From Mytilus trossulus (Eukaryota): a stretch of DNA of 64,000 nt. Both the position numbers and the translations under genes were made by a program. Below the pieces are notes generated by a model. That model made no database searches. It worked only from the letters and a program-made list of their open reading frames with translations, and was not told the origin of the DNA. The stretch is from positions 69,936,001-70,000,000 of the forward strand of contig NC_086381.1 of the NCBI RefSeq assembly GCF_036588685.1, given 5' to 3'. Below, one piece after another: positions 2,747 to 58,544 of this stretch. Each line of letters starts with the position of its first letter. The first letter of the stretch is position 1.

Positions 2747-5700
2747 GTAAGACATTTGTTTATAAAAGACTGAGTGTAGGTAACACTGTTTTATCTTAGT
2801 ACAATGGTATCTTAGTTATATGTCAAAGTTGTTGTTTTATCCTTGACTAAAGTAGTAAGTATAGGGAAGTTTCTCTATGTTATTCAGTTTTAAGACTATA
2901 GATGAGAGAATCTCATGGCACAATACAAGTCCAATTTGTTTCAATGAATATTTTTTGTATGGATTGATACAAGATTTCAGTGAAGATAAGTTTTGTGCAA
3001 ACTTCATTTTCTATAAGATTTGGAGTTCCATCTCTAATCTACATTGGTGTGAGAAAAAATTAATAAAATATCTGCTTATTGAAAAGCTTTTAAATGACTA
3101 AAATTAATTCTTTAGTCTGATTTACTATCTTAATATTTCTTGCTCAAAAGAACAAAAAAAAAACAATAAGATAAGGCACTTAAGCTCTCCTGATCTTTTG
3201 GTACAAGAGTATTAAAATATAGTCAATTATATATGACCCTGTTTTAACTATAAGTATAAACCTTTCTAGTAAAGCAACAATCATACCAGTGGATGGTTAA
3301 GCTAGCTCTAAAACCAGGTTTAATCCACCATTTCCTTTGTGAAATGTTATACTATGTACATATAAAAAATGGTTTAAGTGCTGGAATTGCCTGTTAAGGA
3401 AACATTGCTTATTACCAATATGTTTATCAGATAAACGGAGGTTCAACATATATTAACTTATGGAAGTTTGGGAGTAGATTGAAATGGGGAAAAATGTTTC
3501 AAAATTGGATTATTCCGTTAGAAAACATTTCGTTTTTTTTTTTATTTCAAAAAAATTAACTTTTAGTAGTGATTCAGTTTTTAAATTTATTTTTGGTTTT
3601 TAAGAATACATTTATCAAAAATCAAGAAAGTTTTCTGTTTATTATTTTAGGCACTGGTGGGTAATTTCTCATTAGAATCACTGATGCTATACTTTTCTTC
3701 ACTAATGCTTTGTCTCACATATTCAGAAAGTTTCAATATTTTCTCTGTCTAACAGTTTCAAAAATTAAAACACATTTCTTATGCATATAATATTGATAGG
3801 TGATGACATTTTTTTCTTTTTGTTGGTTCTGAAATGATCCCCATTTGATAATTAAAATATTTCTCCTGAACAATCTTGTACAAGCTAGTTTGAAAATAAT
3901 TTTCTATACAAAGTTTATGGTGGAAAACATCACTGATGAATAACTATATAACAAAATATGATGTGTATATATTTTATGATTTGGTTTGAAATTCTGTAAA
4001 AACAAATCAGGTATCCATGTCGCAGTAAATCTATTTGGATTAAAAAAGATTGGAAGTTCTGGTAAGAGTTATCTCCCATTACACAGTTTACAACACAGTT
4101 CAAGTTGTATGTTGACATTTGCATTCTTTCATTTATGTTAAAATAAAAATATGTTATTTTGTAGTAAAATTTACATATTCTGTTGACGGCATTGTATTGT
4201 ATTCAATATCACTCTTTGTATTCCATCTTTATTGAAGCAATCACATCAGTCTTTGAATCTTATATATCACTGCTACAATTCTTTCTTAAAACATTTCACC
4301 ATTAGGGTACCTTAAAATCTTTGAGAAACAAATATTTTGAAACATGATTGATTATAAAATTAAGCCTACCCTGATGCTATTTACTTCAGCAAAGGCTGTA
4401 TATCACATCTCAATTTATAAACAAAACTATCATTCAGATTGTATTTTGAACATTTGATTATTTCACACAAATACAATTATGTGTTATGTATCAAAATTTG
4501 AATAGTAATTATGAATATGATATTTCTTTGCAAATAAATCATTCTAATGTGTTTCTGTGTTTTTTAAGCTACAAGATGTATTATCAGTAAGAATTTTATA
4601 TCCTTTTCTTCAAATGTTGTCAACTTTATAGAAATATTTCTGAATATACATATCTCTTTTGAATAATTTGCAAATGTCTCCAGCAACTTTAAATTATCCC
4701 CCTTGTATTTGCTTAAACCCTTTCCTATTTTTAGTAATAGAGTCCTTGCACAATTCCAAAGCATTTGATTGAAGTCTTATCATCTATTATCTCCCTTTGA
4801 ATATTGGGGATGTATTTAACCTCATGGCATTTTTTATCTGTGCGGCCTCCACTGGAATAACTGGACATTTTTTTTTACAGTAGCTTTAAATTTGAAGGCA
4901 CTATTAATGGTTATGTTGGGTAGTCAAGGTCATTAAACACCCCCAATGTTAGAAAGTGAATGAATGAATCATAGAAGTAAAACACTTCAGTAGACCCTCC
5001 TGTTTATTTATGTATTGTATGCCTGACATGCCTGCATGTTTTTAGTACAATTGTTTACTGTTGTTTAGTTATTATCAGTATTTTGTTATCTGCATGTATA
5101 ATTTAGGACAGAAAAAGTATGAAAAGATTGCACCACCCTTTTAAACCTGCTTGTAATCAAATATATCATGAATATTACCCCATTGCTAGATGAATACATT
5201 CTTTACATCAAAGACAAAAATCTAACAAAAGAAATACATGTACATTGTTTATCAATAATATGATAATAATTTAATCAGTCTTCATTTAACAATGCTGATG
5301 AACAATTTCTAAACTGCACAAGGTTTTTTTTATTTTTATTTATTAGAAATTATTTCAAATTTTCCAAATACTGTTTTTGAAATTGAACTTGTTCAGAAAT
5401 CTTAAGATTTTGGCTATGAAAATATGAACATGATGCCCTTACCCACTTAGTAGTCCAACTACTGCATTGACTTCAATCTTAATTAATAAGTATTGTCAGT
5501 TTGCCTTCTAAAGGCTGATCACTCCTGATTCCTACAAAGATAAAAAATAATCACACAGAAAAAGCCAATAGTGTTTTAAGTGGCATTAAACACTTATCAA
5601 TCAATCAATGAACATGATAAAAAAAAATGAAGCAATGGTTAAGAATTGATGGAGATAAAGAATTTATTAAAAATTGCAGTGTTTATGTCAATGATTATGG

Positions 5701-6555
5701 TTATTCTAATTGCCCCTCCCCCCCCTTTTTTTCCCTTAGTTTTTAAGCTTTTAAACCTTATTTTTAAATTTGTAAATTAGATAGAGAATGGTAATGGGGA
5801 ATGTGTCAAAGAGTAAAAAAACAGTCTAAGGCAACTAATGGGTCTTCAACACAGTGAGAAAATCATGCAATCTGAGGCAGACTTCATCTGGCCCATAGAC
5901 AAAAATGTGTACTAGTTTCAAACATGGAGGTTAAAGTGAACTCCTAAAAGTTGTCTTTTCTTTAAATTATTTAATGGTTTTACATACCTATATTTTTGTC
6001 AGAAGTTTTTGAGATTTAAAGGTAATCAATACAGTAAAACTTTGTTCTACCTACCTAATTAACTTGTTATTACCTGATTGATTAGAAATATTTATGTTTG
6101 ATTATTGATCCATACATATTTAACTTATAAGTGATTAAACAATTCTATCATTGGAGTTACTTTTTGTTTAATTAAGGATTTACACATACCTTAAATTATT
6201 CATGGGATTTTTTTTTATCTCTACTACAAAGACAATTATTTAATTTAAGATTTCCTACTTCAGAATCTAATATGAGTAAAAAAAAAAAAAAAGCTTACAG
6301 TAAACAATTGAGAGGGGGGGTGGGGGCAATACTTTATTACAGTGTTTACCTTGTAAATATATATTGCATATAGAAGAAGCTTTAGACTGGTTTCTTATTT
6401 TATTGTCTTTTTTTATGATTTTCATATGTATGAAGAAAAGAAATGATATTTTAGAAAGTAATAAAACAAATGCATTTTATTTAAAGTTGAGGCAAATGAG
6501 ATTTTCTTGTTTTTTTTGGTGTAAAATATACATGAAGTACAACAATAACATTTTT

Positions 6556-7618
6556 TGTCGAGCCTTCGACTTTAGTCGAAAAAGCGAGAATAAGCGATCC
6601 TACTTTCCGTCTTCGTCGGTGTCGTCGGCGGCGGCGTCCACAAATATTCACTCTGTGGTTAAAGTTTTTGAAATTTTAATAACTTTCCTAAACTATACTG
6701 GATTTCTACCAAACTTGGACAGAAGCTTGTTTATGATCATAAGATAGTATCCAGAAGTAAATTTTGTATAAATAAAATTCCATTTTTCCCGTATTTTACT
6801 TATAAATGGACTTAGTTTTTTCTGTGGGGAAACATTTCATTCACTTTGTGGTTAAAGTTTTTAGAATTTTTATAACTTTCTTAAACTATCCTTGGTTTGT
6901 ACCAAACTTGGACAGAAGCTTGTTTATGATCATAAGATAGTATCCAAAGTAAATTTTGTAAAAATAAAATTCTATTTTTTCCGTATTTTACTTATAAATG
7001 GACTTAGTTTTTTTCTGCGGGGAAACATTACATTCACTCTGTGGTTAAAGTTTTTAGAATTTTAATAACTTTCTTAAACTATCCTTGGTTTGTACAAAAC
7101 TTGGACAGAAGCTTGTTTATGATCACAAGATAGCATCCAGAAGTAAATTTTGTAAAAAAAAAAATCCATTTTTTCTTTATTTACTTTTAAATGGACTTAG
7201 TTTTTCTGTGGGGAAACATTACATTCACTCTGTGGTTAAAGTTTTTAGAATTTTAATAACTTTCTTAAACTATCCTTGGTTTGTACCAAACTTGGACAGA
7301 AGCTTATTTATGATCATAAGATAGTATCCAGAAGTAAATTTTGTAAAAAGATAATTCCATTTTTTCTGTATTTTACTTTTAAATGGACTTAGATTTTCTT
7401 CCAGTTAATACTTCATACAGTCTGCAGTTAAAGTTTTCAAAACATTTATTAGATTCATTAACTATCCTAGATTTTTACCATACTTGGACAGAAGCTTCTT
7501 ACAATCAAAAGATAGTATCAAGAGGAATATTTTTATTGATTTTTTTTCTAATTTTTGTTGAGCCTGTGATTTACAGCAAAAGTAGGCGAGACACTGGGTT
7601 CCGCGGAACCCTTACAAA
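6556..7618 (+). mobile_element. Helentron-type non-autonomous element (HINE) family A with ~5 internal ~192-bp repeats
   Basis: 5' GTCGAGCCT plus hairpin TTCGACT..AGTCGAA, (CGTCGG)n-like microsatellite, tandem core, 3' AGGCGAGAC plus hairpin GGGTTCCGCGGAACCC, T-rich flanks; sibling at 10654-14538. Confidence 0.75.
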
Positions 7619-8429: not shown

Positions 8430-10135
8430 GTAAGATATTGTTTGTCAATTTAAATTTGTACAAAGACTTGGTGGGTGTTGATGACACGATATACATTCTA
8501 TAGTATATGCACACTTATGTTTTGACAATCTGGAGAATCGGTTTTGTTAAATGGATAATTTTCACACGGGTTCAATTTAGTCTGTTGATCATTTATTTTT
8601 GAGGTATTTGCTGACTTTTAAGAAAATATAGCAACGTCATGATCTGTTTTTCTAGTATCAAAATCCATTTTGATTAAAGGAAAATGCAAACATTAACTAA
8701 ATATAAAATTCTAAACCCATTTTAGACATGTTAAATATTGTATACCAGTATAATGTAATTTGAGTACTTTTTGTTAATTTGATAATTTGAAAGTTCAATG
8801 CAATTCATAAAAAAAAAAGTGACAATTGATATTGCATATGCTATGCATTTCTACATATTTCCAAAACAATTTTTTCTTTTCAAAATTATTTCAGTCTTGT
8901 GCTTATGAATATTTCGTATTACAAATTAGTTAATTTGCCTTTATCTAATCTGGATTCAAGACCCTATAACTCGATAATAAGTGTCTATTAAAGAGCTTTA
9001 TATGAATAATTTATATTAAAAAATATTGAAAGCTTTTTATGAAAAGCCAAACATTAACTTTTTTTGTTACTACAAGTTGAACATGAATGATATATTAGTA
9101 GGGTCTTAGTATTAAATCTATATTAACAAGAAAGGTATTACAAAAGGTTTGTTTGTGTCTTCCAATTTATATCACTTACAAATGTACTACCATATGTCAT
9201 GTATGTAAATCATCCATACAATACAAACAGAGAAATGGTAATTCACATCTACCCTCTAGATTACCAAGAGAAAAACATACGTATATTTTTTTATTACTTT
9301 TGTAAATGGGCTCTATAAAACATTGATAATTTACTCTAATTTATAATATACATATATTGTAAGTATAATTCTGATTTAAAATATTTTATCCAAAGTACAA
9401 ATTGTTCCAAGTTGATCACAGAGATGTCATACAAGTTAGGAATGATTGGTTGGTTATTTGTAGGTGAAAACATTCAATATTTACTTTGTTCTCTAAATTC
9501 TTGTATTTGATATGAATGTATACATGTTTCATTATATTTAAAATCAGACTATTTACTCGGCCAGTAATCACTTAGGTTTGAAAAATGGCATAGTAAACAC
9601 TTTGGTTTTTAAAAATGGCTGACTGTAATGTACATTTTTTAAAAACGACTGGTTTATTTCAAAAGAAGCCCAATTATAGCTCAGATCTTAGCTTATTAAC
9701 TGGCCCTGGCACCTGATTGACTGAGTAATAATTTTCAATTTTGTAGAAAGAAATTTATAGAAAATTGATTGTATAATTCTTTTGACTGGCAGAGATAAAG
9801 TTCATGTTCTAGCAGAACATGAAAAAATATTTTATCACAATAAAATGTATTTGTGATAGTTTACAAAAATACATTTATTCCATTATTTCAATTTTTCATA
9901 AGATAATGCTCTGAAGTGCCCATTACCATTAAACTGGTGCCCTCTGCCCTTTAAAAATCCTAGCTAGAACACTGACTTATCGGTATCGATATTTTTCTAG
10001 CTAGAATGTTTAAAAATTTATGAATAAATGCCTGTATTGTTTAATCTTGTGTATAATATTGTTAAAACAATACCGATTTGAATATTCTAGAATAACAATT
10101 AATTCTTATTAACATGGGTTTTTTTAATCTTAAAG

Positions 10136-10366
10136 GAAGTAGAGTTTGGAGGGTACATGATACAACAGAATGTTGGAGGTCATCCCGTTGCAGTTTACCG
10201 ATTCCCTCCTAGGACGAAATTCACTGGAAACAACACAATCACAGTGTGGTCTGGAAATAATGACCCTATGCTGCATCAGCCCCCAACAGATTATGTTTGG
10301 AAAGAGCAAGAGAAATGGGGTACAGGACCAGAATGTACAACAATCTTATGTAAACCTAATGGACAG
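10136..10366 (+). CDS. LMNTD1: LMNTD1-like exon, LTD core (QQNVGGHPVAVYRF...HQPPTDYVWKEQEKWGTGPECTTILCKPNGQ)
   Basis: Strong recalled similarity to vertebrate LMNTD1 (QQNV..YRF..TVW..HQPP.D..WKEQ.K..TILCKPNGQAIAW); aag acceptor, CAG|gtcagt donor. Confidence 0.92.
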
Positions 10367-10591
10367 GTCAGTAGTTAGTTCAATGTAAACCTAATGGACA
10401 GGTCAGTAGTTAGTTCAATGTAAACCTAATGGACAGGTCAGTAGTTAGTTCAATGTAAACCTAATGGACAGGTCAGTAGTTAGTTCAATGTAAACCTAAT
10501 GGACAGGTCAGTAGTTAGTTCAATGTAAACCTTATGGACAGGTCAGTAGTTAGTTCAATGTTAACCTAATGGACAGGTCAGTAGTTAGTTC
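10348..10591 (+). repeat. 35-bp tandem repeat x7 that includes the exon end and donor site
   Basis: Unit CAATGTAAACCTAATGGACAG|GTCAGTAGTTAGTT. Confidence 0.95.
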
Positions 10592-11660
10592 ACATTTTAA
10601 GCATTGTTATGTATGTAACTTTTAAGCCATTTTATGTATTTTTTTATGGTTTTTGTCGAGCCTTCGACTTTAGTCGAAAAAGCGAGACTAAGCGATCCTA
10701 CATTCCGTCGTCAGCGGCGTCCACAAATATTCACTCTGTGGTTAAAGTTTTTGAAATTTTAATAACTTTCTTAAACTATAATGTATTTCTACCAAACTTG
10801 GCCAGAAGCTTGTTTATGATCATAAGATAGTATCCAGAAGTAAATTTTGTAAAAATAAAATTCCATTTTTCCCATATTTTACTTGTAAATGGACTTAGTT
10901 TTTCGGGGGGGAAACATTACATTCACTCTGTGGTTAAAGTTTTTAAAATTTTGATAACTTTCTTTAACTATACTGGATTTCTACCAAACTTTGACAGAAG
11001 CTTGTTTATGATCATAAGATAGTACCCAGAAGTAAATTTTGTAAAAATAAAATTCCATTTTTTCCATATTTTACTTGTAAATGGACTTAGTTTTTCTGAG
11101 GGGAAACATTACATTCACTCTGTGGTTTAAAGTTTTTAAAATTTTATTCTAATATGACGTGCTTCTTTAGCTTTGTAAAGAAACCATACTTTATTATCCA
11201 ATAAAATTAGTTTGCACATGCGTATATTGACTACGGCAGAAAAATGAATTTTATCAAAATTGGTATGCATTTAATGTATTCCATTAACTTAAAACACTTT
11301 CAAACTCTAAAATGATACACATTGTGTTACTAATACTTTCACAATGACAACAATGTGTTACAATTCATAATTGAACTATTTGACCTAGATACCGCAACGT
11401 CCATGTTGGCTGTTCCAACTTCAAAACCCCTCCCTCTGAAAAACACGTTTCATCGTCTGCTTGTTTACAAAACAAAATGGAGTATGCGAGGACAATCCCG
11501 TTAAAAATTGGACTCAAGGTAGAACACAAAGGACAAGACTACATAATAATTAACCATTTCAATCAGAAACAATCTGTTGTACAATACATAATAAAATATT
11601 TCATCAGGTCAAACAAAACGTGTATTCAGACATGAGATATGTGATGCATCAGTTTCGTCA

Positions 11661-11976
11661 ATGTTTGCCAGACTAACTGATGCCACAATATACCAGTTCG
11701 AGCAAGAGAGCTCGCAATCAGATGATGAGCTTTCCAATTTTGCTGAATTAGTTTCTGAACCTGTAGAAGAACCACAACCAAGGTTAGAACCAGAACAAGC
11801 TTCAGAACAACCAGAACAAGCTTTAGAACCAGAACTAGCTTTAGACCCGGAACCACCCCTAAAGAAACCAAGGTTCAAAGAAATGCCAAGCAGAGAGCAC
11901 ATAGATATGTTGGCTCAGGCCAGAGTAGAAGAGACAACTAAGCAACAAACTGATTGGGGAGTGCGCCTTTTCAGAG
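11661..11976 (+). CDS. Crypton YR exon 1 (acidic EP-rich region, PPLKKPRFK basic motif, TTKQQTDWGVRLF); original start probably 11477 with a frameshift
   Basis: ORF 11661; G|gtaaat donor at 11977 joins in frame to 12592, giving TTKQQTDWGVRLFRGWL, typical of Crypton/KCTD1-like N-termini. Confidence 0.75.
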
Positions 11977-12591
11977 GTAAATAAACTGACTCACATCACA
12001 ACAATTAACTATCATTGCATATACATGTAATTATTATTATGATTTTTCCTGCTATTATGACTACATTGTGTCCTCACTTTTCCTGTTGCAAAGGCATATA
12101 AATATATAATAATTTCATTGAAACATATGATCTAACGATAAAATATAAAATAAATTATAGCCTAAATAGGTTATGATTATTACTGTCGTACTGAAATGAC
12201 AAAATTGTTTCATATTTATGATAAAATGGATTGACCCTAGCAGGGAATCGAACCCCATTCTCCTATAAAAAAAATAGGCGTAATTACCAATATACCACCA
12301 AGGTTTCCAATCCATTTACAAATGCAACAAGATTGTCACTCAGTTTGAATTTAATCATCATTAGAAAAACAAAATTTATCAGCAAAAAATGTATGCATTT
12401 CGTGTGATGTACATGTACATGTATGATGAACTGTGAGTCGCAACAAGACTATTTACAAAATTTAAATCATTCAACCAATAAAATAAAAAAAAGCCTTAAA
12501 ACATCTTATTTGGACATATATACTTCTAAATTTGCATTTATTATAAAGGTGAATATTATTTAAACTTGATAAAATATAATTTGAATTTCAG

Positions 12592-13742
12592 GATGGTTGA
12601 CAGAAAACCAATACAGTGACAAGTTTGAGGAACTTGAAAGCTCCATATTAAATGAGAGATTATGCTTTTTCTATCCAAGCCTGCAAACAAAAAAAGGAAC
12701 AGATTACTCTAAATCAGCATTAGTTGGAATACGTGCAGCAATATCCCGTCATCTCACATCTCCACCATACAACCGTAATGTTAATTTAATGAAAGATAAT
12801 GCCTTCATGACATCAAATCATGTAATAACGGGAATGATAAAAACCCTAAAGAGAGCCGGCAAAGATGTTACGGTACACAAAAAACCTGTAGCTGAAGGAG
12901 ACATACAGCGTTTATATTCAAGTGGGGTTTTCAACACAGATTCCCCAGCAACACTACAAAACAAAGTATTCTGGGACTTAATGTTGAATTTTGGAAGACG
13001 AGGCCAGGAAGGGTTAAATAGTTTGACAAAGTCATCTTTTGGTAAGTTCAAGGATGACAGGGACCATACATATTATAAAATGACATACAATGAGGCAAAT
13101 AAAACTCACCATGGCGTTGATTCCCATGAAAACCGTCAAGAGGTGCGTATGTATGAAAAATCAGGAGATGAAAACTGTCCAGTGGCAAGTTTTGATTTTT
13201 ATGTATCTAAATTGAGTCCTAAATGTAATGCGCTGTTTCAACAGCCATTGCTTTATCCAAAACCAAATTGCTGGTATGCTAATCAAGCCATGGGAAAAAA
13301 CAAATTGAGTCAAATGATGCCAAGGATTTCAAATGAAGCAGGCCTTTCCTACAGATACACCAACCATTGTATAAAAGCTACCGTTGGTACTGGGCTGAAA
13401 CGCGCCGGGGTCGATGATTTAACTATCATGTCAGTTACGGGTCATAGAAACATTAAATCGTTAGAAAGTTATGTTGCTGGACCGTCAGATGCACAAAGGC
13501 GTGCCCTCTCATCAACTCTACAGGGTGTAGCTACCGCAAGTAACAGTAATGAATCTGTGTCAAAGGGCCCCTCCTGCCAAGTCTCAAATCATGTCAGTAC
13601 AATATCCAGGAATCCTCTGTCCGACATGAGTATTTTCACAAACGCTACAATAACCAGGGGAACATTTACTATAAATTTAGTTAGTAAAGACTTACCCGAT
13701 TCTCCAGTACGTCCACCGCCATTGACAAGTTCAACTGACTGA
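12592..13742 (+). CDS. Crypton tyrosine recombinase (DUF3504-like) exon 2
   Basis: tttcag acceptor; motifs YSKSAL..IRAAISRHL, LQNKVF..NFGRRGQE, CPVASF, MGKNKL, YTNHCIKAT, VTGHRN..SLESY; uninterrupted ORF. Confidence 0.9.
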
Positions 13743-14030
13743 AAAACGCGGCCTGAAATGTGCGTGTCAGCTGAACTGTTGACCTCAAAGGAAAAGACGT
13801 TGATTTATAACGTTTCTGTTATTTTGTGACTCAAACATTGTTTTAGTTAATAAATTTGTTAATTTCTGTTTTAATTTAGAATTTTAAAATTATTACAACT
13901 TTGCAAAATTAAACTGGTTTGAACTAGTTGAATAAAAATCAACAGGGAGGTTGATAGAAGAGCCTACACACATACTGTAACCTTATACACAGCAAACATA
14001 GAAATTACCGTAAATGTCCTAATCAGAATC

Positions 14031-14191
14031 GAAATAATTGATGGCAGCTATACTTTATTGTATTTTTAACATGGGTAGGCATTATATTCGTGTTATTTTA
14101 GCCCTCGCTATCGCTCTGGCAAAAATAATCACAAATATAATGCCTACCCATGTTAAAAATACAATAAAGTATAGCTGCCATCAATTATTTC
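14031..14191. repeat. Long near-perfect inverted repeat (~73-bp arms) at the Crypton right end
   Basis: GAAATAATTGATGGCAGCTATACTTTATTG...GCC, loop CTCGCTATCGCTCT, GGC...CAATAAAGTATAGCTGCCATCAATTATTTC. Confidence 0.95.
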
Positions 14192-15097
14192 TTAAATAAC
14201 TTTCTTATGAATCTTATGTATGATCATAAGATAGTATCCATAAGTTTATTTTGAAAGAAAAAAAAATCCACTTTTTCCATATTTGACTTTTAAATGGACT
14301 TAGATTTTTCTTCCAGTTAACATTACATACATGTAAAGTCTGCAGTTAAAGTTTTTAAAGCATTTGTTAGATTCATAAACTATGCTGGATTTTTACCAAA
14401 CTTGGAAAGTAGCTTCTTACAAACAAAAGATTGTATCAAGAGGAATATTTTTATTTATTTTTTTCCTCATTTTTGTTGAGCCTGCGCTTTGGACAGCAAA
14501 AGTAGGCGAGACACTGGGTTCCGCGGAACCCTTACAAATTTTATATTCTATAAAGCTAAATTTAAGGTCTTTCACCTTTGCTTGCTTGAATATACTTAAA
14601 TATTAGCAATGACAGAGATGTTTTTTAAGCAACAGAAAAGAATTTTTAAATGAGGTTGGTGCCAGTTCTATATCAGTTTGTTTTGTGAATACAATTAAAC
14701 ACAATTACAGTCTGTTTTGGCTGATTTAAATCAACAGTATACTGTGACAGTTCTTTGTTTTATATGGAATCCTAATAACTGTATATTTTGTACTTGTTTG
14801 GTGTATTGTAAAAGGTATTATGCAAGAGGAGAATTAAGATAATATGATATACATAGAGAATGACATCTTGTCAGACAATTTATCGCAAAGAGCTGATACA
14901 AATAACCCCTAAAAAAAGTCTGATATTATTAAACCTTGCTTCCCTAACCAATGGTAAATGATGATGGAAGTTATTAACGACCTTGACTGGCTACACAGTC
15001 CTGACACGGTCGGTTAGTCAATGGTATTAATGTTGATTGCTGTCTTATTTTAATAAATGAATGTAATCTGAGATAATAAGATTTGCTTTTTACACAG

Positions 15098-16796: not shown

Positions 16797-16969
16797 GCAG
16801 AAACAGCAACCACCAACCCTGTCACCACAGAAACATCCACATGGAGGTAATCCTATAAAGGAGGTCCATCCTCACACAAGTCAACCACGTCCCCTTACAT
16901 ATGGAAATGACAATAGCAGTGTAAACAGACAGTCTAGGTCACAAACAACTAGACCTGACCCTATTCCAG
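16797..16969 (+). CDS. LMNTD1: LMNTD1-like exon (QKQQPPTLSPQKHPHG...SSVNRQSRSQTTRPDPIP)
   Basis: ttttatag acceptor, open frame, CCAG|gtaatg donor; phase 1 fits the exon at 22605. Confidence 0.82.
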
Positions 16970-19900
16970 GTAATGTACAGCTGTGTTAACAGGCAGTCTA
17001 GGTCACAAACAACTAGACCTGACCCTATTCCAGGTAATGTACAGCTGTGTTAACAGGCAGTATAGGTTACAAACAACTAGACCTGACCCTATTCCAGGTA
17101 ATGTACAGCAGTGTTAACAGACAGTCTAGGTCACAAACAACTAGACCTGACCCTATTCCAGGTAATGTACAGCTGTGTTAACAGGCAGTATAGGTTACAA
17201 ACAACTAGACCTGACCCTATTCCAGGTAATGTACAGCAGTGTAAACAGACAGTCTAAGTCACAAACAACTAGACTTGACCCTATTCCAGGTAATGTACAG
17301 CTGTGTTAACAGGCAGTCTAGGTCACAAACAACTAGACCTGACCCTATTCCAGGTAATGTACAGCAGTGTTAACAGACAGTCTAGGTCACAAACAACTAC
17401 ACATGGCCCTATTCCAGGTAATGCACAGCTGTGTTAACAGACAGTCTAGGTCACAAACAACTACACATGGCCCTATTCAAGGTAATGTACAGCTGTGTTA
17501 ACAGGCAGTCTAGGTCACAAACAACTAGACTTGACCCTATACCAGGTAATGTACAGCTGTGTTAACAGGCAGTCTAGGTCACAAACAACTAGACCTGACC
17601 CTATTCCAGGTAATGTACAGCAGTGTTAACAGGCAGTCTAGGTCACAAACAACTAGACCTGACCCTATTCCAGGTAATGTACAGCTGTGTTAACAGGCAG
17701 TCTAGGTCACAAACAACTAGACCTGACCCTATTCCAGGTAATGTACAGCAGTGTTAACAGACAGTCTAGGTCACAAACAACTAGACCTGACCCTATTCCA
17801 GGTAATGTACAGCTGTGTTAACAGACAGTCTAGGTCACAAACAACTAGACCTGACCCTATACCAGGTAATGTACAGCTGTGTTAACAGACAGTCTAGGTC
17901 ACAAACAACTAGACCTGACCCTATTCCAGGTAATGTACAGCAGTGTTAACAGACAGTCTAGGTCACAAACAACTAGACCTGACCCTATACCAGGTAATGT
18001 ACAGCTGTGTTAACAGGCAGTCTAGGTCACAAACAACTAGACCTGACCCTATTCCAGGTAATGTACAGCAGTGTTAACAGACAGTCTAGGTCACAAACAA
18101 CTACACATGGCCCTATTCCAGGTAATGCACAGCTGTGTTAACAGGCAGTCTAGGTCACAAACAACTAGACCTGACCCTATTCTAGGTAATGCACAGCTGT
18201 GTTAACAGGCAGTCTAGGTCACAAACAACTAGACCTGACCCTATTCCAGGTAATGTACAGCTGTGTTAACAGGCAGTCTAGGTCACAAACAACTAGACCT
18301 GACCCTATTCCAGGTAATGTACAGCTGTGTTAACAGACAGTCTAGGTCACAAACAACTAGACTTGACCCTATTCCAGGTAATGTACAGCTGTGTTAACAG
18401 GCAGTCTAGGTCACAAACAACTAGACCTGACCCTATTCCAGGTAATGTACAGCTGTGTTAACAGACAGTCTAGGTCACAAACAACTAGACCTGACCCTAT
18501 TCCAGGTAATGTACAGCAGTGTTAACAGACAGTCTAGGTCACAAACAACTAGACCTGACCCTATTCCAGGTAATGAACAGTTGTGTTAACAGACAGTCTA
18601 GGTCACAAACAACTACACATGGCCCTATTCCAGGTAATGTACAGTTGTGTTAACAGGCAGTCTAGGTCACAAACAACTACACATGGCCCTATTCCAGGTA
18701 ATGTACAGCAGTGTTAACAGACAGTCTAGGTCACAAACAACTAGACCTGACCCTATTCCAGGTAATGTACAGCTGTGTTAACAGACAGTCTAGGTCACAA
18801 ACAACTAGACCTGACCCTATTCCAGGTAATGTACAGCAGTGTTAACAGACAGTCTAAGTCACAAACAACTAGACCTGACCCTATTCCAGGTAATGTACAG
18901 TTGTGTTAACAGACAGTCTAGGTCACAAACAACTACACATGGCCCTATTCCAGGTAATGCACAGCTGTGTTAACAGGCAGTCTAGGTCACAAACAACTAG
19001 ACCTGACCCTATACCAGGTAATGAACAGCTGTGTTAACAGGCAGTCTAGGTCACAAACAACTACACATGGCCCTATTTCAGGTAATGTACAGCTGTGTTA
19101 ACAGGCAGTCTAGGTCACAAACAACTACACATGGCCCTATTCCAGGTAATGTACAGTTGTGTTAACAGGCAGTCTAGGTCACAAACAACTACACATGGCC
19201 CTATTCCATGTAATGTACAGCAGTGTTAACAGACAGTCTAGGTCACAAACAACTAGACCTGACCCTATTCCAGGTAATGTACAGCAGTGTTAACAGACAG
19301 TCTAGGTCACAAACAACTAGACCTGACCCTATTCCAGGTAATGTACAGCTGTGTTAACAGGCAGTATAGGTTACAAACAACTAGACCTGACCCTATTCCA
19401 GGTAATGTACAGCTGTGTTAACAGACAGTCTAGGTCACAAACAACTAGACCTGACCCTATTCCAGGTAATGTACAGCTGTGTTAACAGGCAGTCTAGGTC
19501 ACAAACAACTAGACCTGACCCTATTCCAGGTAATGTACAGCTGTGTTAACAGACAGTCTAAGTCACAAACAACTAGACCTGACCCTATTCCAGGTAATGT
19601 ACAGCTGTGTTAACAGGCAGTCTAGGTCACAAACAACTACACATGGCCCTATTCAAGGTAATGTACAGCTGTGTTAACAGGCAGTCTAGGTCACAAACAA
19701 CTAGACTTGACCCTATTCCAGGTAATGTACAGCTGTGTTAACAGGCAGTCTAGGTCACAAACAACTAGACCTGACCCTATTCCAGGTAATGTACAGCTGT
19801 GTTAACAGGCAGTCTAGGTCACAAACAACTAGACCTGACCCTATTCCAGGTAATGTACAGCTGTGTTAACAGACAGTCTAAGTCACAAACAACTAGACCT

Positions 19901-21235
19901 GACCCTATTCCAGGTAATGTACAGCTGTGTTAACAGGCAGTCTAGGTCACAAACAACTAGACCTGAACCTATTCCAGGTAATGTACAGCTGTGTTAACAG
20001 GCAGTCTAGGTCACAAACAACTAGACCTGACCCTATTCAAGGTAATGTACAGCTGTGTTAACAGGCAGTCTAGGTCACAAACAACTAGACCTGACCCTAT
20101 TCCAGGTAATGTACAGCAGTGTTAACAGACAGTCTAGGTTACAAACAACTAGACCTGACCCTATTCCAGGTAATGCACAGCTGTGTTAACAGACAGTCTA
20201 GGTCACAAACAACTAGACCTGACCCTATTCAAGGTAATGTACAGCTGTGTTAACAGGCAGTCTAGGTCACAAACAACTAGACCTGACCTGACCCTATTCC
20301 AGGTAATGAACAGCTGTGTTAACAGGCAGTCTAGGTTACAAACAACTAGACCTGACCCTATTCCATGTAATGTACAGCAGTGTTAACAGACAGTCTAAGT
20401 CACAAACAACTAGACCTGACCCTATTCCAGGTAATGTACAGCTGTGTTAACAGACAGTCTAGGTCACAAACAACTAGACCTGACCCTATTCCAGGTAATG
20501 TACAGCTGTGTTAACAGGCAGTCTAGGTCACAAACAACTAGACCTGACCCTATTTAAGGTAATGTACAGCTGTGTTAACAGACAGTCTAGGTCACAAACA
20601 ACTAGACCTGACCCTATTCCAGGTAATGTACAGCTGTGTTAACAGGCAGTCTAGGTCACAAACAACTACACATGGCCCTATTCCAGGTAATGAACAGCTG
20701 TGTTAACAGGCAGTCTAGGTCACAAACAACTAGACCTGACCCTATTCCAGGTAATGTACAGCTGTGTTAACAGGCAGTCTAGGTCACAAACAACTAGACC
20801 TGACCCTATTCAAGGTAATGTACAGCTGTGTTAACAGGCAGTCTAGGTCACAAACAACTAGACCTGACCCTATTCCAGGTAATGAACAGCTGTGTTAACA
20901 GGCAGTCTAGGTTACAAACAACTAGACCTGACCCTATTCCAGGTAATGTACAGCTGTGTTAACAGGCAGTCTAGGTCACAAACAACTAGACCTGACCCTA
21001 TTCAAGGTAATGTACAGCTGTGTTAACAGGCAGTATAGGTCACAAACAACTAGCCCTGACCCTATTCCAGGTAATGAACAGCTGTGTTAACAGGCAGTCT
21101 AGGTCACAAACAACTAGACCTGACCCTATTCCAGGTAATGTACAGCTGTGTTAACAGACAGTCTAGGTCACAAACAACTAGACCTGACCCTATTCAAGGT
21201 AATAAACAGCCATGTTAAGCAGTTTAGGTCACAAA
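16915..21235 (+). repeat. 64-bp tandem array, ~67 copies, derived from the exon 3' end plus donor site
   Basis: Unit CAGCTGTGTTAACAGGCAGTCTAGGTCACAAACAACTAGACCTGACCCTATTCCAG|GTAATGTA. Confidence 0.97.
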
Positions 21236-21271
21236 CTTCAAAACTAAAAAAAAAAAATTAAGCAAGCAGAT

Positions 21272-35420: not shown

Positions 35421-35496
35421 AACAATTGGTTAAGGTTAGATAACTTCTTCGACTAGACATGTTAATGAATTTACAATTCAAAAGCTTTAAAGGTTT

Positions 35497-35815
35497 TTAA
35501 TGTTGCCATTACTATTTCTTTGTTTTCTGGCAATGTGCAGTTTACTATCCATATCCATAAACTGAAAAACCTAAAGGGATCTAAGTCGCCATCTTGAATC
35601 ATGTGAATTGCATTCCCTTCTTTAGATAGTAAAAGAAAATGAGGGCTGTTGTAAGGTATAAAGTAATTTAATAATATTTTTAATTATTTTTTATCTTAAG
35701 TAGGGAAGGCAGTTCAAGATGGCGACTTATATCCCTTTAGGTTTTTTCAGTATATGGATATGGATAGTAAATTGCAAATTGCCAGAAAACGAAGAAATAA
35801 TAATGGCACCGTTAA
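35497..35815. mobile_element. Foldback/MITE with ~100-140-bp inverted arms, TTAA at both ends
   Basis: TGCCATTA..TATCCATATCCATA..AAGTCGCCATCTTGAA mirrored by TTCAAGATGGCGACTT..TATGGATATGGATA..TAATGGCA. Confidence 0.75.
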
Positions 35816-38800
35816 ATACGTAATAAAGTAATGCAAATAAACAGGAAATAATAAAAAAAAAAAAATTAAAAACATTGATTTACGAAATTTTAATTTGCTA
35901 ACCGAGTCCCTGTGTGGATACCAACTATCAGTAATTAATTATTAAACATATTTAAAGGAAACAAGATATTTGTATAAGTGGGACCAGTTGGTAGATCTTT
36001 ATTCAGTGGGGTTTAAACCCTTTTCGTTAATAAGTAAGTTAACAGATTGATTGTTTAATTTGATTTGACACTTTTTCAAAAGTGGGGCGAGTCGGTAAAC
36101 AAGAGTGGGTCTATTCTTTTATGAGGCAATGCCAGAGAAAACCAGGCAGAACTTGGAAATTTTGTTCAACAGCCTTTTTGAGATAAATGTGTTTTTGTAA
36201 TGTATCCACCTTGTTTTGTTGGGAAATGACATTTTAAAAAGTCATATTGGGTTATTATGTATAAAAAAATGAATTTGATTTTTCAGTAAATTTGACTGCT
36301 TATATAGGGAAATAGGGGTATTAATTTCTCAAAAAAAAACAGTCTACAATATAACAATTGATATATATTCTAACAGATATCCATGAATACAGCAGGAAAT
36401 GATAATAACATCTTTGGTATCTGTTGATATGTAAATGTTCTAATGCAGTAAACTGTCAGGAAACAGCAGTTTATTTTCGTCTTTTTGGTGTTTAGACATA
36501 CAAAAGTGATGCTCTTCAATTTAAAAACCGATAAAGGTTGTAACCAGCTGGTAATGTTTTGACAGAAAAATGAACTTCTGTTGTATATTTGCATACATAA
36601 TTGAACATTTTGATAAGATTTAAGAAAAGTACATAACTTTGTGGTGTTGGGAAACTTATTTCCCTCACCAGGAGATTGTTGCATACATGTACGGGTGATT
36701 TCCAGACAGAGGTAGTTACAATATCTGTACGGGAAATTTTATGAGGATTATTTATAAGACTGAAATTATTGTATTATTTGCTGGAAATGTGGAATATGAG
36801 GAATTTAAAGCCATTCGTGAGTAGTTTTTGATGATTCAGCTGGACAAATGCTGGAAGTTATACAGTTTTCTCCCACCTTCAAACAGTACATGGTATATCA
36901 TGGACACCAAAAGCAAACTATAAAGATCTAAATGCCATAATTTTGTGCATCTTGAAAACTGGAAAGGCGGATCACTTTGAAGCAGATGATAGTGATAGTG
37001 TTTAAAGGATACTTTGCGACAGTTATACCAGTTGGAACAGGTAATAGTTTAAATTATTAAAGTTTAAAATTACTTCTCAGATAAATAATTTATGTGGCCC
37101 GTTCAATAATTTTAATACATCCCCCTTTTCCCTCATATTTTTAGTTACAATGTGAAATTATTCTCTGCAAATGTATGATCTGTGCTGAAAGCAATTTTAT
37201 ACAATTTTATTCATCATGTTCAAACATTATTTGAATAGGATAAAAATTTAAAATAAAAAAAAACAAAAAAAAATGCATGTATCAGGCTCAAAAGTTACAA
37301 AAAAAAAGAAGATTTGGTTATGATCATGATGATTGCCAGTGAGAAAATCACATGTACAACTATCCTCCATATACACAACAGACCATACATGTCTATCACC
37401 TTATTTATTATGCTTATCATTAATATTTACATGTCAGTAAGGTATGTTCATGTGCCAAAATGAATGTACAAAAATGTACAAGTAGGCAAAATGAGACTAC
37501 AACTGAATACATTTGCATGTACATGTACAATGTACATGTAGAATAGATAAATGTATAAAAAGATGTGGCATGAGTGTCAATGATAGATCATGATACAACT
37601 CTCCATCCAAGTCACAATTTATAAAAGTAAAGACAATCCTACAGTTATCAGGATAGTCATACATTTGTATGTATGTTTATGTCAGATATACAATGTACAT
37701 GTAAACAGTAAGCTTAATTTGTTAAAAATCAGGAACGTCAAATTTAAATTTCCTGTAATTTTGATTGCTACATATACAGTGTACCTATATTTTATGACAT
37801 ATGAAAGACACACATATATTGAAAAGTGGTAAATTAATCATGATTACATATATATTTATTTATAAAAATAAAACTTGTATATCAAATCTTAAGATAATTA
37901 GATTCTTAATCCGCTTTTTAGATGGGATCTTTTGGGACAGCAATACCTTTGTTTCATAAAATTGTTGTTTATTTTCCTTCGTGTCCTTAGAAACTAAATT
38001 AGACATGTGATATATATACATGATACAATTTCAAGGATTTCAAACTTTTAACATTAAGTTCAAAACTGAAAAAAATGTTTAAAAATTAGCACATTTTGAG
38101 ATCTTGTCATTAGAATTTAGATACAAATGTACATTTGTACATGTACATGTGTGATCCTGAAGTGCATAACATATACGGTTAATTTGACTCAAATATAACA
38201 AGTAAAGTTGTTTAGTAATAAGTTAATCACAATTTACCTTTCTGCTTTAAAGTGTTCATTTAGATCATTTTATACATTAACCTGTCCATTTAAAAATAGA
38301 ATTAATCATACAAAAAAGTCTTTTAACTTTGAATATTTGAATGTAGTAAGATGCTAACAGCTCATTATATATTTAAGAAAATAACTAATTTGATTTTAAA
38401 TACAATTTTCCAAATTCAATTTAAAGAATAATTGATCACCTTATAATCTGTTATTTCTTTAAACAGATAAAAGATACATCAGATGACAGACTTACATATA
38501 GAGGAGCCTATAATTAGAAAAATGGATCAACTTGATTTTGAAGTTAACCTACTGCATTAATATGAAAATTCATAAGTGAGTACCAGTATCTCTTAAAGTA
38601 CATTTTTTACATGTTTATCTATATTTTGATAAAGTACCATATGAGATAAAGTATGTGAAATCTTAAATCCTGTAAATAAACTAGACATTACATCAGTACA
38701 TAATGTAAATCAGAATAAGAATGCATAACAAATGAATTGTTAAACATTTTAATATGACCAGTGTCAGCTTAATTTAAGAACAATTTAAAACACAGATGAC

Positions 38801-43721: not shown

Positions 43722-43856
43722 CATTTCCCTAAGCTTCTTGAGATATGAAGATTTGTTCACCCTCGAAAAGTCATATTTCCCTCGGGCGATGCCCTCGTGA
43801 AATATGATTTTCTTGGATGAACAAATCTTCATATTTCCCTCAGGCACGGGAAATAC
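43722..43856. repeat. Imperfect long hairpin (Crypton-like non-autonomous end)
   Basis: ATATGAAGATTTGTTCA..ATATTTCCCTCGGGC GAT GCCCTCGTGAAATAT..TGAACAAATCTTCATAT. Confidence 0.8.
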
Positions 43857-55420: not shown

Positions 55421-57415
55421 AAAAAAATGAACAAATGCGATGGTTGAATACATAATAAGCCATACGGCATGACCAATGGGGACATACATATAATGTCAAA
55501 ATCCACATATCCAGTCGACTTTGCCTAGGCAGTCGATGGAATCATTTTTTAAGATGACTGTTGCTGTTCAATTGCATTATAACGAGTGTCGGTGTTAGGG
55601 ATCTATCGTGTATGGGAAGTGCACTTTGACACAAAATCTCAAAATGAAAAAAAACAGCAAGAAAAAACCCATTGTTCTTTCAGTATATTGTAATTTCCAT
55701 GTTTTTTCATGAGGTATTTGTCACTAGTATAGTATTTTAGATAGTAATTTGTACCACGTCCCGTTTTAATGACATGTCGTACTTATCTTTTGTTTTATGC
55801 ATTACAAAGAGGTATTATTCTACCAGACACAATCAAACATGATTGCCAATGGCAGTTATAAAAGTTCTATATTTCGATGCACTCAACTGTCAAGTAGTAT
55901 ATCCTATTAGTATACTTATTACTATCTAATATTTAATGGAAGTTCAAATAGTTGCCTTTTAGACGCAGAACAATCAACTACTAAACAATCAATAATACTA
56001 AAGAAACCATGATAGACCGATTAATGGTGTCTTGCTTTATTAATTTATCTTAATTAAAGGTAGACAATTTTTTAATATCTTTTTATATTCGACAGCTAAG
56101 GGTTGCAATTTAGTGCCTTCTACAGAAAGGAACAGGCTATATCGTAACCTTGGCCAGCGAAGATGATCATTTACATGCATGACCGAAATCAGTACGAAGG
56201 TTCTGCCAAAAACGCTCGACCTTGATTTTCTACATTAAATAACTGAATAAATAACATAAAAAGGATGTTTTAACCTTTTTCATGAATGTGTGCTAAATTA
56301 TAAGTATACTAGCCACTTTTACGCTTTTAAATACCTCGTAAAATAGAAACACACCGAAGAGTCTATAAAGGTTAAAGTTATGCTTTAATCAGGACGAGAT
56401 GTATAAATATAAAGTTGACTAGTTAAAGCTCAGTACAAATGTAAGATGTTGTAATTTGATTTTTGAGTGAAAGAATAGAAAAAAGTTGTCAAGGTGACGG
56501 TATTGGCTGGTTGACTTTTTTTTAAATGTCTTTTGAAATAAATGATAAATACACTTATGTTCAGCATAAGTGACTTTATGGTACAATGAAAGACTAAATT
56601 GTAAATGTATTCAGACTTGTGTTATCATGTTTTGTAAATTTTAGAAATATGTAGAAAATAGTTATGGATGGTACATATGTGATTGTCTAACTTGGAACTC
56701 ATTGGAATTTTGTAATTGATAAGGGGGTGCTACTTTAACATGTTTAAGCACATGTTTTAATTTTCAGCTTCCATTCCAAATAGCTGCCAAAGGAAGAACA
56801 CACATAAATTTGGTGACATTCAATTTTCATAAAATATTTCAAACATTTATTTTTGGTTGAGTTTTTTTTGTTTGGGTGTGTGTGGGCTTTTATTGAGATG
56901 TTTTTGCATTTGTCTTTTGATGTATGTATATTTATTATTTAAATCAAACCGTAGTGTAGTGTATGTTGTATCATTTAAGATCGAGTAGGTATATGGTTAA
57001 CGTGATAATTAAATGTATTATGCCTACTGTCCGAAAGTTCTTCACTTTTTAAGATTTTATGATTCATGATAACATGTATAACGACCGTATGGTTTATTCC
57101 GGAAGTTCTTCACTTTAAAAAAAAAAAAATTATGATTCCTTTTAACGACCGTATGGTTTATTCCAGAAGCTTCTGCTAACAACAGCAAATTGATATAGAG
57201 CCGGAAAAAACTTACTATAAATTTGATATTATAGAATTACATTTGACCTTGAATTCAGTCTGTCATATAAGAAAGTATTAAATATCAAATAAAGTTTGAA
57301 CCATATTCATAACAGTATGCCATATACCAATGCGTGTTTATTATAGGTAACTTATCTACAGATGATAGAATAATAATGGTATGTGCAACGTTTCAATATA
57401 CATGATATATAGAGA

Positions 57416-57543
57416 ATAATACATGGAAAAATCCGTAGGATATGTCGTATCATCCGCAGACATCAATATCAGCCCAAGGGCCTTTAGGGATGATGTTGGT
57501 CGAGGGTGATACGACATGTGATACAGATTTTGCCATGTTTTAT
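57416..57543. repeat. Imperfect long hairpin (Crypton-like non-autonomous end)
   Basis: ACATGGAAAAATCCGTA..ATGTCGTATCA..ATCAGCCC / GGGATGAT..TGATACGACAT..TACAGATTTTGCCATGT. Confidence 0.7.
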
Positions 57544-58544
57544 ACGCTATATCATATATTTCAACAGGAGAGTATTATATTATATGAACTGTTTTATGAT
57601 CTATACCAACGGGTTACCTTCAGTTCTACTTTTGTCTTGTTTTAAAATCCTTAAAAGAACTGCTCAATCACTTATCCTAAGCACCTTATTATTGTATTTT
57701 TTTGTGTGTTTTGTATTTTTTATACTTGCATTTAGTGTGCCAAAAATATGAAAACTTGAACGGTACGCACGGTATTGCGTCGCAAGACGTAACAGGCATA
57801 ATTGACAAATGTGACGCCATATACTAACTTTGACATTTTGTTATCAAGAGCGGAGAACCTACTCGGTCGACTTTTATTAAATAATAAAATACGCATCGTA
57901 GTTATTTTGTGATCTGTAATGAGATGAAAACAAATGCCAATTTTTCCAATTTTATTTTGGATAGGATACATATCAACCTTTAAAAAAATCTTGCTTCCGG
58001 AGGAACACATAAAGACAAAAATATAGCTGAACATTTTTTTTACAAATTGAACATAAACACTTATGGTATTTATTTCATAAGAATCGGTCATATAATAATT
58101 CAGCAATATTTCTTATTATAAGGATTTTAGTTGAAATTGTTTTTTTTTTAGATTGAACACACTGTTTTCCAATATTTGAATGTGTCTGTGCGATTTTTTA
58201 GATCATTTCTCTATCTTTTTAGTACTAATGGTTTTATTTCACAAATACGTATTTATTTAATTCTTTAAAAATCATAAGACCATTGTACCTCGGATTCTAA
58301 TCGGTTTCTAATCTATAAAGGTGTTTTAGATTTGCGTGAAAAGTTTTGTCCATAAGAAATTATCCCTCGGCCCATCCAACTTGTTCTCTATGACTATAAA
58401 GGGGTTACAATTCCTTATGTTTGTGTGTTTTTCAAATCTGAGTGTTATATTGATACAGCAGATCATTTTGGAACGAACATTTTCCGGCATCATTTTAACT
58501 GCCTAAACAGTTCGTAAATAGTGTTTATTTGTATAAAAGACGTC

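Follow-up and report, generated by a model that had tools for sequence, protein, structure and literature searches.

The 64-kb window analyzed here (the whole stretch of 64,000 nucleotides of Mytilus trossulus contig NC_086381.1) contains an insert, located within a HINE, that we interpret as a frameshifted copy of a young Mytilus transposon of the CryptonA type. A long hairpin lies just inside its 3' end, and this hairpin and the stretch that precedes it are predicted to pair with both ends of the element. The recombinase encoded by the element likely both cuts and rejoins a single folded strand, in the manner of an integron integrase at an attC site. We assign this reading, taken as a whole, a probability of roughly 0.5. 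As a plain Crypton copy the locus is ordinary; the feature of interest is the end structure that is shared across the family. Coordinates of all features are compiled in Table 1.

The ends of the element were established by comparison with intact HINE sequence. Among 169 junction pairs evaluated against four intact HINE units, the best two (11146/14196 and 11145/14195) tied at a score of 114 and the runner-up scored 102, which fixes the ends to within one shared A. An earlier interpretation of this DNA made from its letters alone (hereafter the sequence-only reading) had considered both junctions to be defined, and this was borne out: 11147-14195 is one of the tied best placements, and HINE contigs that lack the insert were recovered in three DNA sequencing runs, where they depart from the window after 11146 with the letters of 14196 onward (as loose ends). 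The 192-bp tandem array also ends at 11146. The insertion site can be reconstructed, as had been proposed, with the intact HINE at 6552-7618 as reference. The claim that the HINE was cleanly split holds for the first 13 bases of the right flank but not beyond, where about 29 HINE bases are missing (at 14209). Comparison of the junctions with the intact HINE revealed no target site duplication (TSD), in keeping with the earlier description, and the single shared A stands in place of the 4-6-bp terminal direct repeat of CryptonF and CryptonS. This does not speak against CryptonA, as animal Cryptons are reported to lack such repeats (PMC3212892). Likewise, no terminal inverted repeat (TIR) connects the two ends of the insert, as had been stated, but the long inverted repeat with 69-bp arms that is confined to the 3' end had been overlooked. 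No other copy of either element end was found within the window. A T-to-A difference at 11145, present in about one-third of the depth, is compatible with a circle junction or with a HINE variant that is one T shorter and is not used as evidence.

Relatives of the element were examined among metagenome loci, 80 of which were retained from 101. Two of these, L005 and L008 (approximately 47-50% protein identity), align with each other from positions 1305 and 2792, respectively, to just beyond their hairpins, and both start with TTCTAA and finish with TTATTTCTTAA, as does the window element. In both loci TTATTTCTTAA directly follows the locus's own, different hairpin. These shared termini confirm the ends of the window element independently; the differing boundaries among copies that would have spoken against the sequence-only reading were not seen in these loci. 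The right flank reads NTAA in all three elements, and the identity between junction and target amounts to 1 base in the window, 0 in L005, and 3 in L008. A second clade (L028, L072, L040, L046, and L020) has a 3-base ATT repeat at both junctions. The 5' motif was tallied at 4 matches, with none on the other strand; this tally was made after the motif was seen and hence is no test. In L005, a sequence of 7 bases is found three positions ahead of the left end and recurs immediately past the right end (1293-1304 and 5623-5629). It was not read as a TSD, since it is absent at the window element and L008.

The two hairpin arms (14031-14099 and 14123-14191) are complementary at 65 of 69 positions, with the first 58 pairs being perfect, and the folding z score is -21.9, with none of 200 shuffles equally stable. 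Mirror positions 14063 and 14159 both differ from the window copy in approximately 99% of the depth in three runs, indicating that the arms change together. A gapped search identified a hairpin 3' of the recombinase gene in 25 of 47 loci (those offering 600 or more bases on that side) and 5' of the gene in 6 of 37 (Fisher p = 6e-4, for loci that are not independent). Hairpin-bearing loci are scattered over the whole protein tree, and their arm sequences differ. Two loci, L040 and L079, have their clade's 5' end or gene and no 3' hairpin within the contig.

In six of the seven relatives that have both ends, the 5' end of the element finds its complement in the DNA just ahead of the left arm. 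When the ends were joined in silico, the outer duplex of the predicted fold crossed the junction in all eight elements with both ends, and the junction fell 1-3 pairs into that duplex, next to a bulge, next to an internal loop, or where a continuous stem ends (8/8, predicted folds). In four relatives the ends had been set by pairwise alignment regardless of pairing; the anchored complement scores of three were 9 in L008, 16 in L028, and 16 in L072, each unequalled among 400 controls, and the fourth, L005, scored only 4. Scores of 10, 19, and 18 were obtained for L058, L062, and L024 (0 controls as high), where complementarity itself was used to choose the 5' ends, whose sole further support is a direct repeat of 3-4 bases shared with the 3' end. 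Cross-comparison showed that the best-scoring pre-hairpin stretch was the element's own for the 5' ends of L028/L072, L058, L062, L024, and L008 and that of L008 for the 5' ends of the window element and L005, the terminus being common to these three. The match in L026 lies at the first base of its contig, with 2 of 40 controls as good. The end-pairing design is thus clear in relatives and faint in the window copy.

Several further observations concern hairpins. The hairpin centers of L020, L024, L026, L029, L056, L072, and the window element (14100-14122) often carry short G+C motifs, GCTTCGC and GCCTTCGGC being examples. The other strand of such motifs resembles very stable DNA mini-hairpins and could mark the active strand. 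Two imperfect hairpins elsewhere in the window (43740-43837 and 57407-57552) have centers of the CTCGGGC/GCCC type like those of Crypton relatives and are possibly non-autonomous members of other Crypton families. Long hairpins with similar centers lie upstream of the recombinase gene in L025 (1-184) and L050 (121-229), representing another element or an inverted layout. An Rfam match of the window hairpin to mir-302 was discarded, as it is below the cut-off (37.4 vs 55) and reflects the stem only.

The recombinase gene had been described as a two-exon tyrosine recombinase gene with an intron at 11977-12591, and this model was upheld. The spliced frame from the ATG at 11661 encodes 488 amino acids (aa) without a stop and is identical to an annotated M. 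trossulus RefSeq protein, P0102 (488/488). Homologs run across the junction 11976/12592, and the same RG/FG motif precedes the break in L005, L011, L013, L014, and L053. The one RNA run analyzed (approximately 6% read) gave no support for the splice: exon depth is 0-2 and the joint is absent among the 15 of 421 joints listed. Six further RNA runs contained only small portions of this stretch. Exon 2 matches both profiles that the sequence-only reading had suggested checking (DUF3504, E = 5.5e-15; Phage_integrase, E = 3.4e-7), with no GCR1_C domain match in Pfam. The list of open reading frames and Pfam revealed a single tyrosine-recombinase gene and no reverse transcriptase or DDE transposase in the element. 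A fold search with an AlphaFold model of the recombinase (mean pLDDT 80.5) placed QRICH1 at the top and also retrieved Cre (TMq 0.46), XerA, XerH, and the Tn1549 integrase.

The window copy of this gene is damaged. Homologs P0097, P0060, P0004, and P0010 split into two frames when aligned by tblastn. P0097 (550 aa, same species label as P0102) is identical at 485 of 488 positions, and its two aligned frames overlap by 2 bases; in addition, the 11594-11597 region has 2 extra bases in three contigs, which come from two runs (X2 record 17; X11 records 9 and 10). These observations indicate that the window copy lost 2 bases near 11594-11597. The earlier description as apparently full-length therefore applies to the DNA but not to the reading frame. 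The copy could still yield the 488-aa product from the next in-frame ATG at 11661, minus 62 N-terminal residues. An intron at 11519-11607 that would bypass the frameshift was ruled out by its wrong phase, and homologs read through that stretch.

The catalytic codons are Arg-I at 12999, His at 13365, Lys in place of Arg-II at 13374, His at 13443, and Tyr at 13470, giving the set R-H-K-H-Y and not R-H-R-H-Y. Lys at Arg-II (13374-13376) is present in 13 of 63 homologs with the motif and in all 8 of the 10 members of the top-match protein cluster that span the site, and it is unchanged in collapsed X1 and X2 contigs. A quick tree of 67 rows, which comprises homologs from the present searches alone, without Repbase or Dfam reference elements, places it in two deep clades that are separate from each other (13 rows; 4 changes vs 12 with shuffled labels). 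The possibility that this residue is a private lesion was ruled out by the homologs, cluster members, contigs, and tree. [quoted passage not shown]

The family to which the element belongs is young, multi-copy, found in Mytilus, and of the CryptonA type (group names follow PMC4455052 and PMC5753468). Among 1,821 candidates, 95 homologs of the exon-2 protein were identified at E <= 1e-20, the best from Mytilus and many from Mytilus and other bivalves. The protein cluster that contains the top match comprises 10 sequences, which derive from three Mytilus species and one metagenome contig, and two of those in one species are 99.4% identical. Interior contigs mostly show 0-5 letter differences over 170-660 bases, and a few have diverged by approximately 10% (24 of approximately 31,800 pieces listed). 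The assignment to CryptonA follows from the DUF3504 match, the lack of GCR1_C, an animal host, the lack of TIR and TSD, and dispersed multiple copies with derivatives. The sequence-only reading's proposal of a Crypton-type, molluscan, and fairly young family is consistent with the DUF3504 match, the Mytilus homologs, and the near-identical contigs and cluster members. Its description of Cryptons as rare is not supported for this host group, given the 95 homologs.

In X1, depth is 145,682 in the hairpin bin, 33,786 in the first interior bin at the 5' side, and 147-439 in most coding bins, these being read-depth bins and not a copy number; X2 and X11 show the same shape. Joints of internal deletions (11454-12103 and 12352-13483) were detected in DNA runs. 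The deep ends and the deletion joints point to many non-autonomous derivatives. Bins over 12180-12425, which include a tRNA-like sequence within the intron, are approximately 10-20 times deeper than the exons, and the two deletions would leave that sequence in place; a derivative family retaining it may exist. No tRNA was detected in the 60 related loci scanned. Neither the terminal patterns nor the protein profile had a match or confirmed relative in viral contigs or prokaryotic genomes. One homolog, P0038, is assigned to a metagenome-assembled genome of a bacterium (Candidatus Thiodiazotropha), where host DNA in the bin is more likely than a bacterial gene.

We propose that movement of the element would begin when it becomes single-stranded, for example at a replication fork, whereupon 14014-14099 would pair with the 3' end and the 5' end and bring both junctions side by side within one helix. 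A recombinase tetramer would then exchange one strand and free a single-stranded circle, the junction of which (A|TT in the window element) would lie within the outer duplex of a long imperfect hairpin. Finally, the folded junction would recombine with a double-stranded target, for which 0-4 bases of identity would suffice, and the product would be resolved by replication, allowing copies to accumulate without a TSD. Intact sisters would mobilize the window copy itself as well as non-autonomous derivatives in which the ends are preserved. Such a single-strand mechanism would account for target identity of 0-3 bases, for a structure that is kept despite sequence change, and for copy gain. Active Cryptons of Chlamydomonas gained copies although they excise (PMC9977147), and one-strand circle formation by tyrosine recombinases exists among bacterial strand-biased elements (PMC9345347).

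A number of observations weigh against this proposal. The pairing is weak in two elements: the window element has an anchored complement score of 5.5 (equalled by 21 of 400 controls) and an outer duplex of 5 perfect pairs, with 37 of 60 controls folding as stably, and L005 has a score of 4, with 81 of 400 interior controls as high. A blind search for complementarity (27 rows, 2 of them too short) missed the true 5' ends of the window element, L005, and L008, and it returned no complementary 5' end in six hairpin loci with more than 900 upstream bases (L011, L020, L043, L052, L067, and L075). The five independently delimited elements represent only two or three lineages. A downstream hairpin was not found in 22 of 47 loci, and a strict ungapped test yielded hairpins in 10 of 47 loci downstream versus 2 of 37 upstream (Fisher p = 0.058, for loci that are not independent). 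The fold of the recombinase is nearer to Cre (TMq 0.46) than to the integron integrase (rank 35, TMq 0.30). No end-to-start joint, as expected of a circle, was among the 15 of 421 joints listed, in a data type (assembled contigs) that drops rare forms. On double-stranded DNA the same complementarity could equally be read as an inverted pair of binding sites and, in the accessible text of a 2026 review, no Crypton mechanism has been demonstrated by experiment (PMC13565253).

Such binding sites figure in the classical Crypton route, in which a double-stranded circle is excised and then integrated by two-strand, site-specific recombination, and the hairpin and its complement act as inverted binding sites, a cruciform, a signal for circle replication, or an RNA structure rather than as a folded substrate. 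We consider this route unlikely here, albeit deserving of serious weight: the double-stranded circle is the published model (PMC3212892, PMC13565253), clean excisions are described in Chlamydomonas (PMC9977147), the recombinase resembles in fold the Cre, Xer, and Tn1549 integrases, whose substrate is duplex DNA, and the right hairpin arm contains a poly(A) signal motif at 14163. Left unexplained by it are the continuity of the arm with the stretch complementary to the 5' end, with pairing across the junction, and the 58 perfect pairs kept by mirror changes while arms differ among clades. Junction-target identity of 0-3 bases is too small for a two-strand crossover; Tn916-type integrases, which tolerate unmatched cores, count toward the classical route on this point. 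A splint of the kind seen in DIRS elements is improbable. Under this scenario the internal complementary region circularizes a linear single strand, which is either displaced DNA or a cDNA produced by the reverse transcriptase of another element, and the recombinase acts later on a double-stranded circle. [quoted passage not shown] Yet the element has no reverse transcriptase frame, RNA depth is 0-2, and near-identical genomic copies retain the intron, with relatives breaking at the same motif, which argues against a spliced RNA step; the DNA-only version of the splint overlaps the first step of the single-strand mechanism that we favor.

Two other explanations concern what the components are. 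That the hairpin is a separate, high-copy palindromic element resembling a MITE (a miniature transposable element with inverted repeats), which landed at the end of a Crypton and pairs with the 5' end by chance in A+T-rich DNA, would fit its depth (several hundred times that of the interior and about 4 times that of the 5' bin), the occurrence of other hairpins in the window (18 listed), and the weak pairing of the window copy. This becomes quite improbable when L005 and L008, despite their protein divergence, end in the same TTATTTCTTAA after hairpins of their own, and when six relatives show clade-specific complementarity of 9-22 bases. We give scarcely any credence to a domesticated DUF3504 gene of the KCTD1, ZMYM, QRICH1, or KIAA1958 type or to a long-dead fossil. 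Database labels of relatives ('KCTD1_15' or 'ZMYM2-like/QRICH1'), the top fold match to QRICH1, and the replacement of Arg-II, as in domesticated genes, would agree with such an origin, but the catalytic Tyr and His are retained, the ten cluster members come from three Mytilus species with two at 99.4% identity in one, and the insert is sharp-ended within a HINE within an intron. Moreover, Lys at Arg-II is common to two deep clades and is compatible with activity in Cre R292K (PMC2943603). Domestication is refuted for the window locus unless the other copies are alleles of one syntenic site; clustering with domesticated genes, raised by the sequence-only reading as a possible objection, is at odds with a multi-copy protein that keeps its catalytic Tyr.

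The element was compared to characterized systems. It resembles CryptonA elements, including CryptonA-1_LG of the limpet Lottia (PMC3212892), in having one DUF3504 tyrosine-recombinase gene, no GCR1_C, no TIR or TSD, a length of 2-4 kb, and abundant non-autonomous derivatives; it differs in its ends defined to one base, its hairpin with 69-bp arms, the complement to the joined ends, its intron, and Lys at Arg-II. Fungal relatives of CryptonA can likewise contain introns (PMC13465315). For animal Cryptons, including that of the Lottia limpet, no terminal repeats were found and the termini are listed as not determined in the accessible portion of the original description (PMC3212892, supplement 1), and the available part of a 2022 curation guide gives a short direct repeat as the sole Crypton end feature (PMC8969392). 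CryptonF-1_cRei of Chlamydomonas (PMC9977147) and CryptonS are similar in having only a recombinase, a short target preference, no TSD, and copy gain, but they have a 5-6-base terminal direct repeat (CACCG/CAYCG, TATGG), whereas 0-1 base is seen in the window clade and 3-4 in relatives. The domesticated genes KCTD1, ZMYM2/3/4, QRICH1, and KIAA1958 share the DUF3504 domain and fold, but they are single-copy host genes that have lost the catalytic Tyr, unlike the multi-copy element with its mobile layout. Circles of Starships have also been reported (bioRxiv 10.64898/2026.09.21.753150).

The attC sites of integron cassettes are imperfect palindromes that are recombined as one folded strand and resolved by replication; only GTT and AAC, within the outer boxes, are conserved bases, and a spacer is unpaired (PMC8946536, PMC2727003). 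Cassettes share with the element a gene followed by a long imperfect 3' palindrome, minimal target identity, and a tyrosine recombinase (PMC8946536, PMC2727003). The predicted circle junction here would likewise lie in the outer duplex beside an unpaired spacer, a likeness that is strong in six relatives and weak in the window element and L005. Unlike integrons, the element is eukaryotic and has the recombinase gene inside the unit, a longer and more perfect stem, and no attI platform, and its recombinase is no closer to IntI than to Cre. The junctions read A|TT, A|TA, T|AG, or T|TG and not the conserved GTT/AAC of attC. The cut position in attC is G|TT. DIRS elements also carry, internally and close to the 3' end, a stretch complementary to the first and last bases, and their recombinase is related (PMC6681497), but the element here lacks the reverse transcriptase/RNase H and the long left inverted repeat and retains its intron.

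More tentatively, with confidence that falls somewhat short of even, animal CryptonA elements may be self-encoding eukaryotic gene cassettes, their recombinase excising and inserting a single folded strand of DNA at a hairpin that resembles attC and in which the 5' end of the element completes the outer stem. They would then constitute the first eukaryotic single-strand tyrosine-recombinase system and the source of the DIRS complementary region. If single-strand recombination is true, it would link Cryptons to integron chemistry and explain copy gain without target duplication; it would offer an origin for the DIRS complementary region, from a Crypton combined with a reverse transcriptase; and it would tell which DNA structure was bound by the ancestors of ZMYM, QRICH1, and KCTD1. 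No paper was found that describes a Crypton hairpin paired with both ends, in a search that was thin on subscription papers and did not include Goodwin 2003, Repbase Reports, Repbase, or Dfam. The hairpin together with the stretch complementary to the 5' end would provide a rule for finding the ends of animal Cryptons, with easier annotation and a testable mechanism, and the young Mytilus family, one 550-aa member of which is annotated and intact, offers a practical point of entry. Curators may already be aware of the hairpin by itself, since Eulor repeats are described as hairpin-forming and Eulor5/6 are currently classified as Cryptons.

Table 1. Positions of the Crypton-type element, its parts, and surrounding features in the window.
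Feature	Position	Strand	Description
Crypton-type element	11147..14195	+	3,049 bp; alternative placement 11146-14194 owing to one shared A
5' terminus	11147..11160	+	Begins TTCTAA; predicted partner 14014-14028 once ends meet; same start at L005:1305 and L008:2792
Exon 1	11477..11976	+	Family start codon at 11477; 2-bp deletion near 11594-11597
Intron	11977..12591	+	GT-AG, 615 bp, 27% G+C
tRNA-like sequence, Lys-TTT call	12233..12304	-	In intron; ARAGORN; Rfam tRNA 43.1 bits, cut-off 29
Exon 2, tyrosine recombinase	12592..13742	+	Pfam; codons; predicted fold compared with QRICH1 and Cre
Stretch complementary to joined ends	14014..14029	+	Ends AGAAT, imperfect further out; AGAAT in same place in L005 and L008
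Subterminal hairpin	14031..14191		161 bp, 69-bp arms, 23-base center; stem base 4 bases inside right end
Host HINE, whole interrupted copy	10650-14542	+
Host HINE, left part	10650..11146	+	2.2 units of 192 bp
Host HINE, right part	14196..14542	+	Subterminal repeat, 3' palindrome; about 29 bp deleted 13 bases past junction
Intact HINE of same family	6552..7618	+	4.6 units of 193 bp; reference for empty site
Host-gene exon, lamin-tail-like domain	10126..10368	+	Pfam LTD E = 5.2e-6, 27.2 bits, below cut-off of 34.3

Both HINE copies have the subterminal inverted repeats, 3' palindrome, central tandem repeats, and T-run insertion site by which HINEs are defined (PMC7492417). The exon of the host gene at 10126-10368 joins 15098 in frame, which places the HINE and the element within an intron of the lamin-tail-domain gene, whose strand they share. 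Immediately upstream of the HINE, seven tandem 35-bp units (10348-10592) each carry the host exon's 3' end together with the splice donor, such that the donor is present seven times. Elsewhere in the window, a 327-bp MITE-like element at 35493-35819 has long inverted arms that are approximately 76% alike, and a 64-bp tandem array occupies 16915-21236 (67.5 copies, 94% identity), adjoined by 38-bp and 34-bp arrays.

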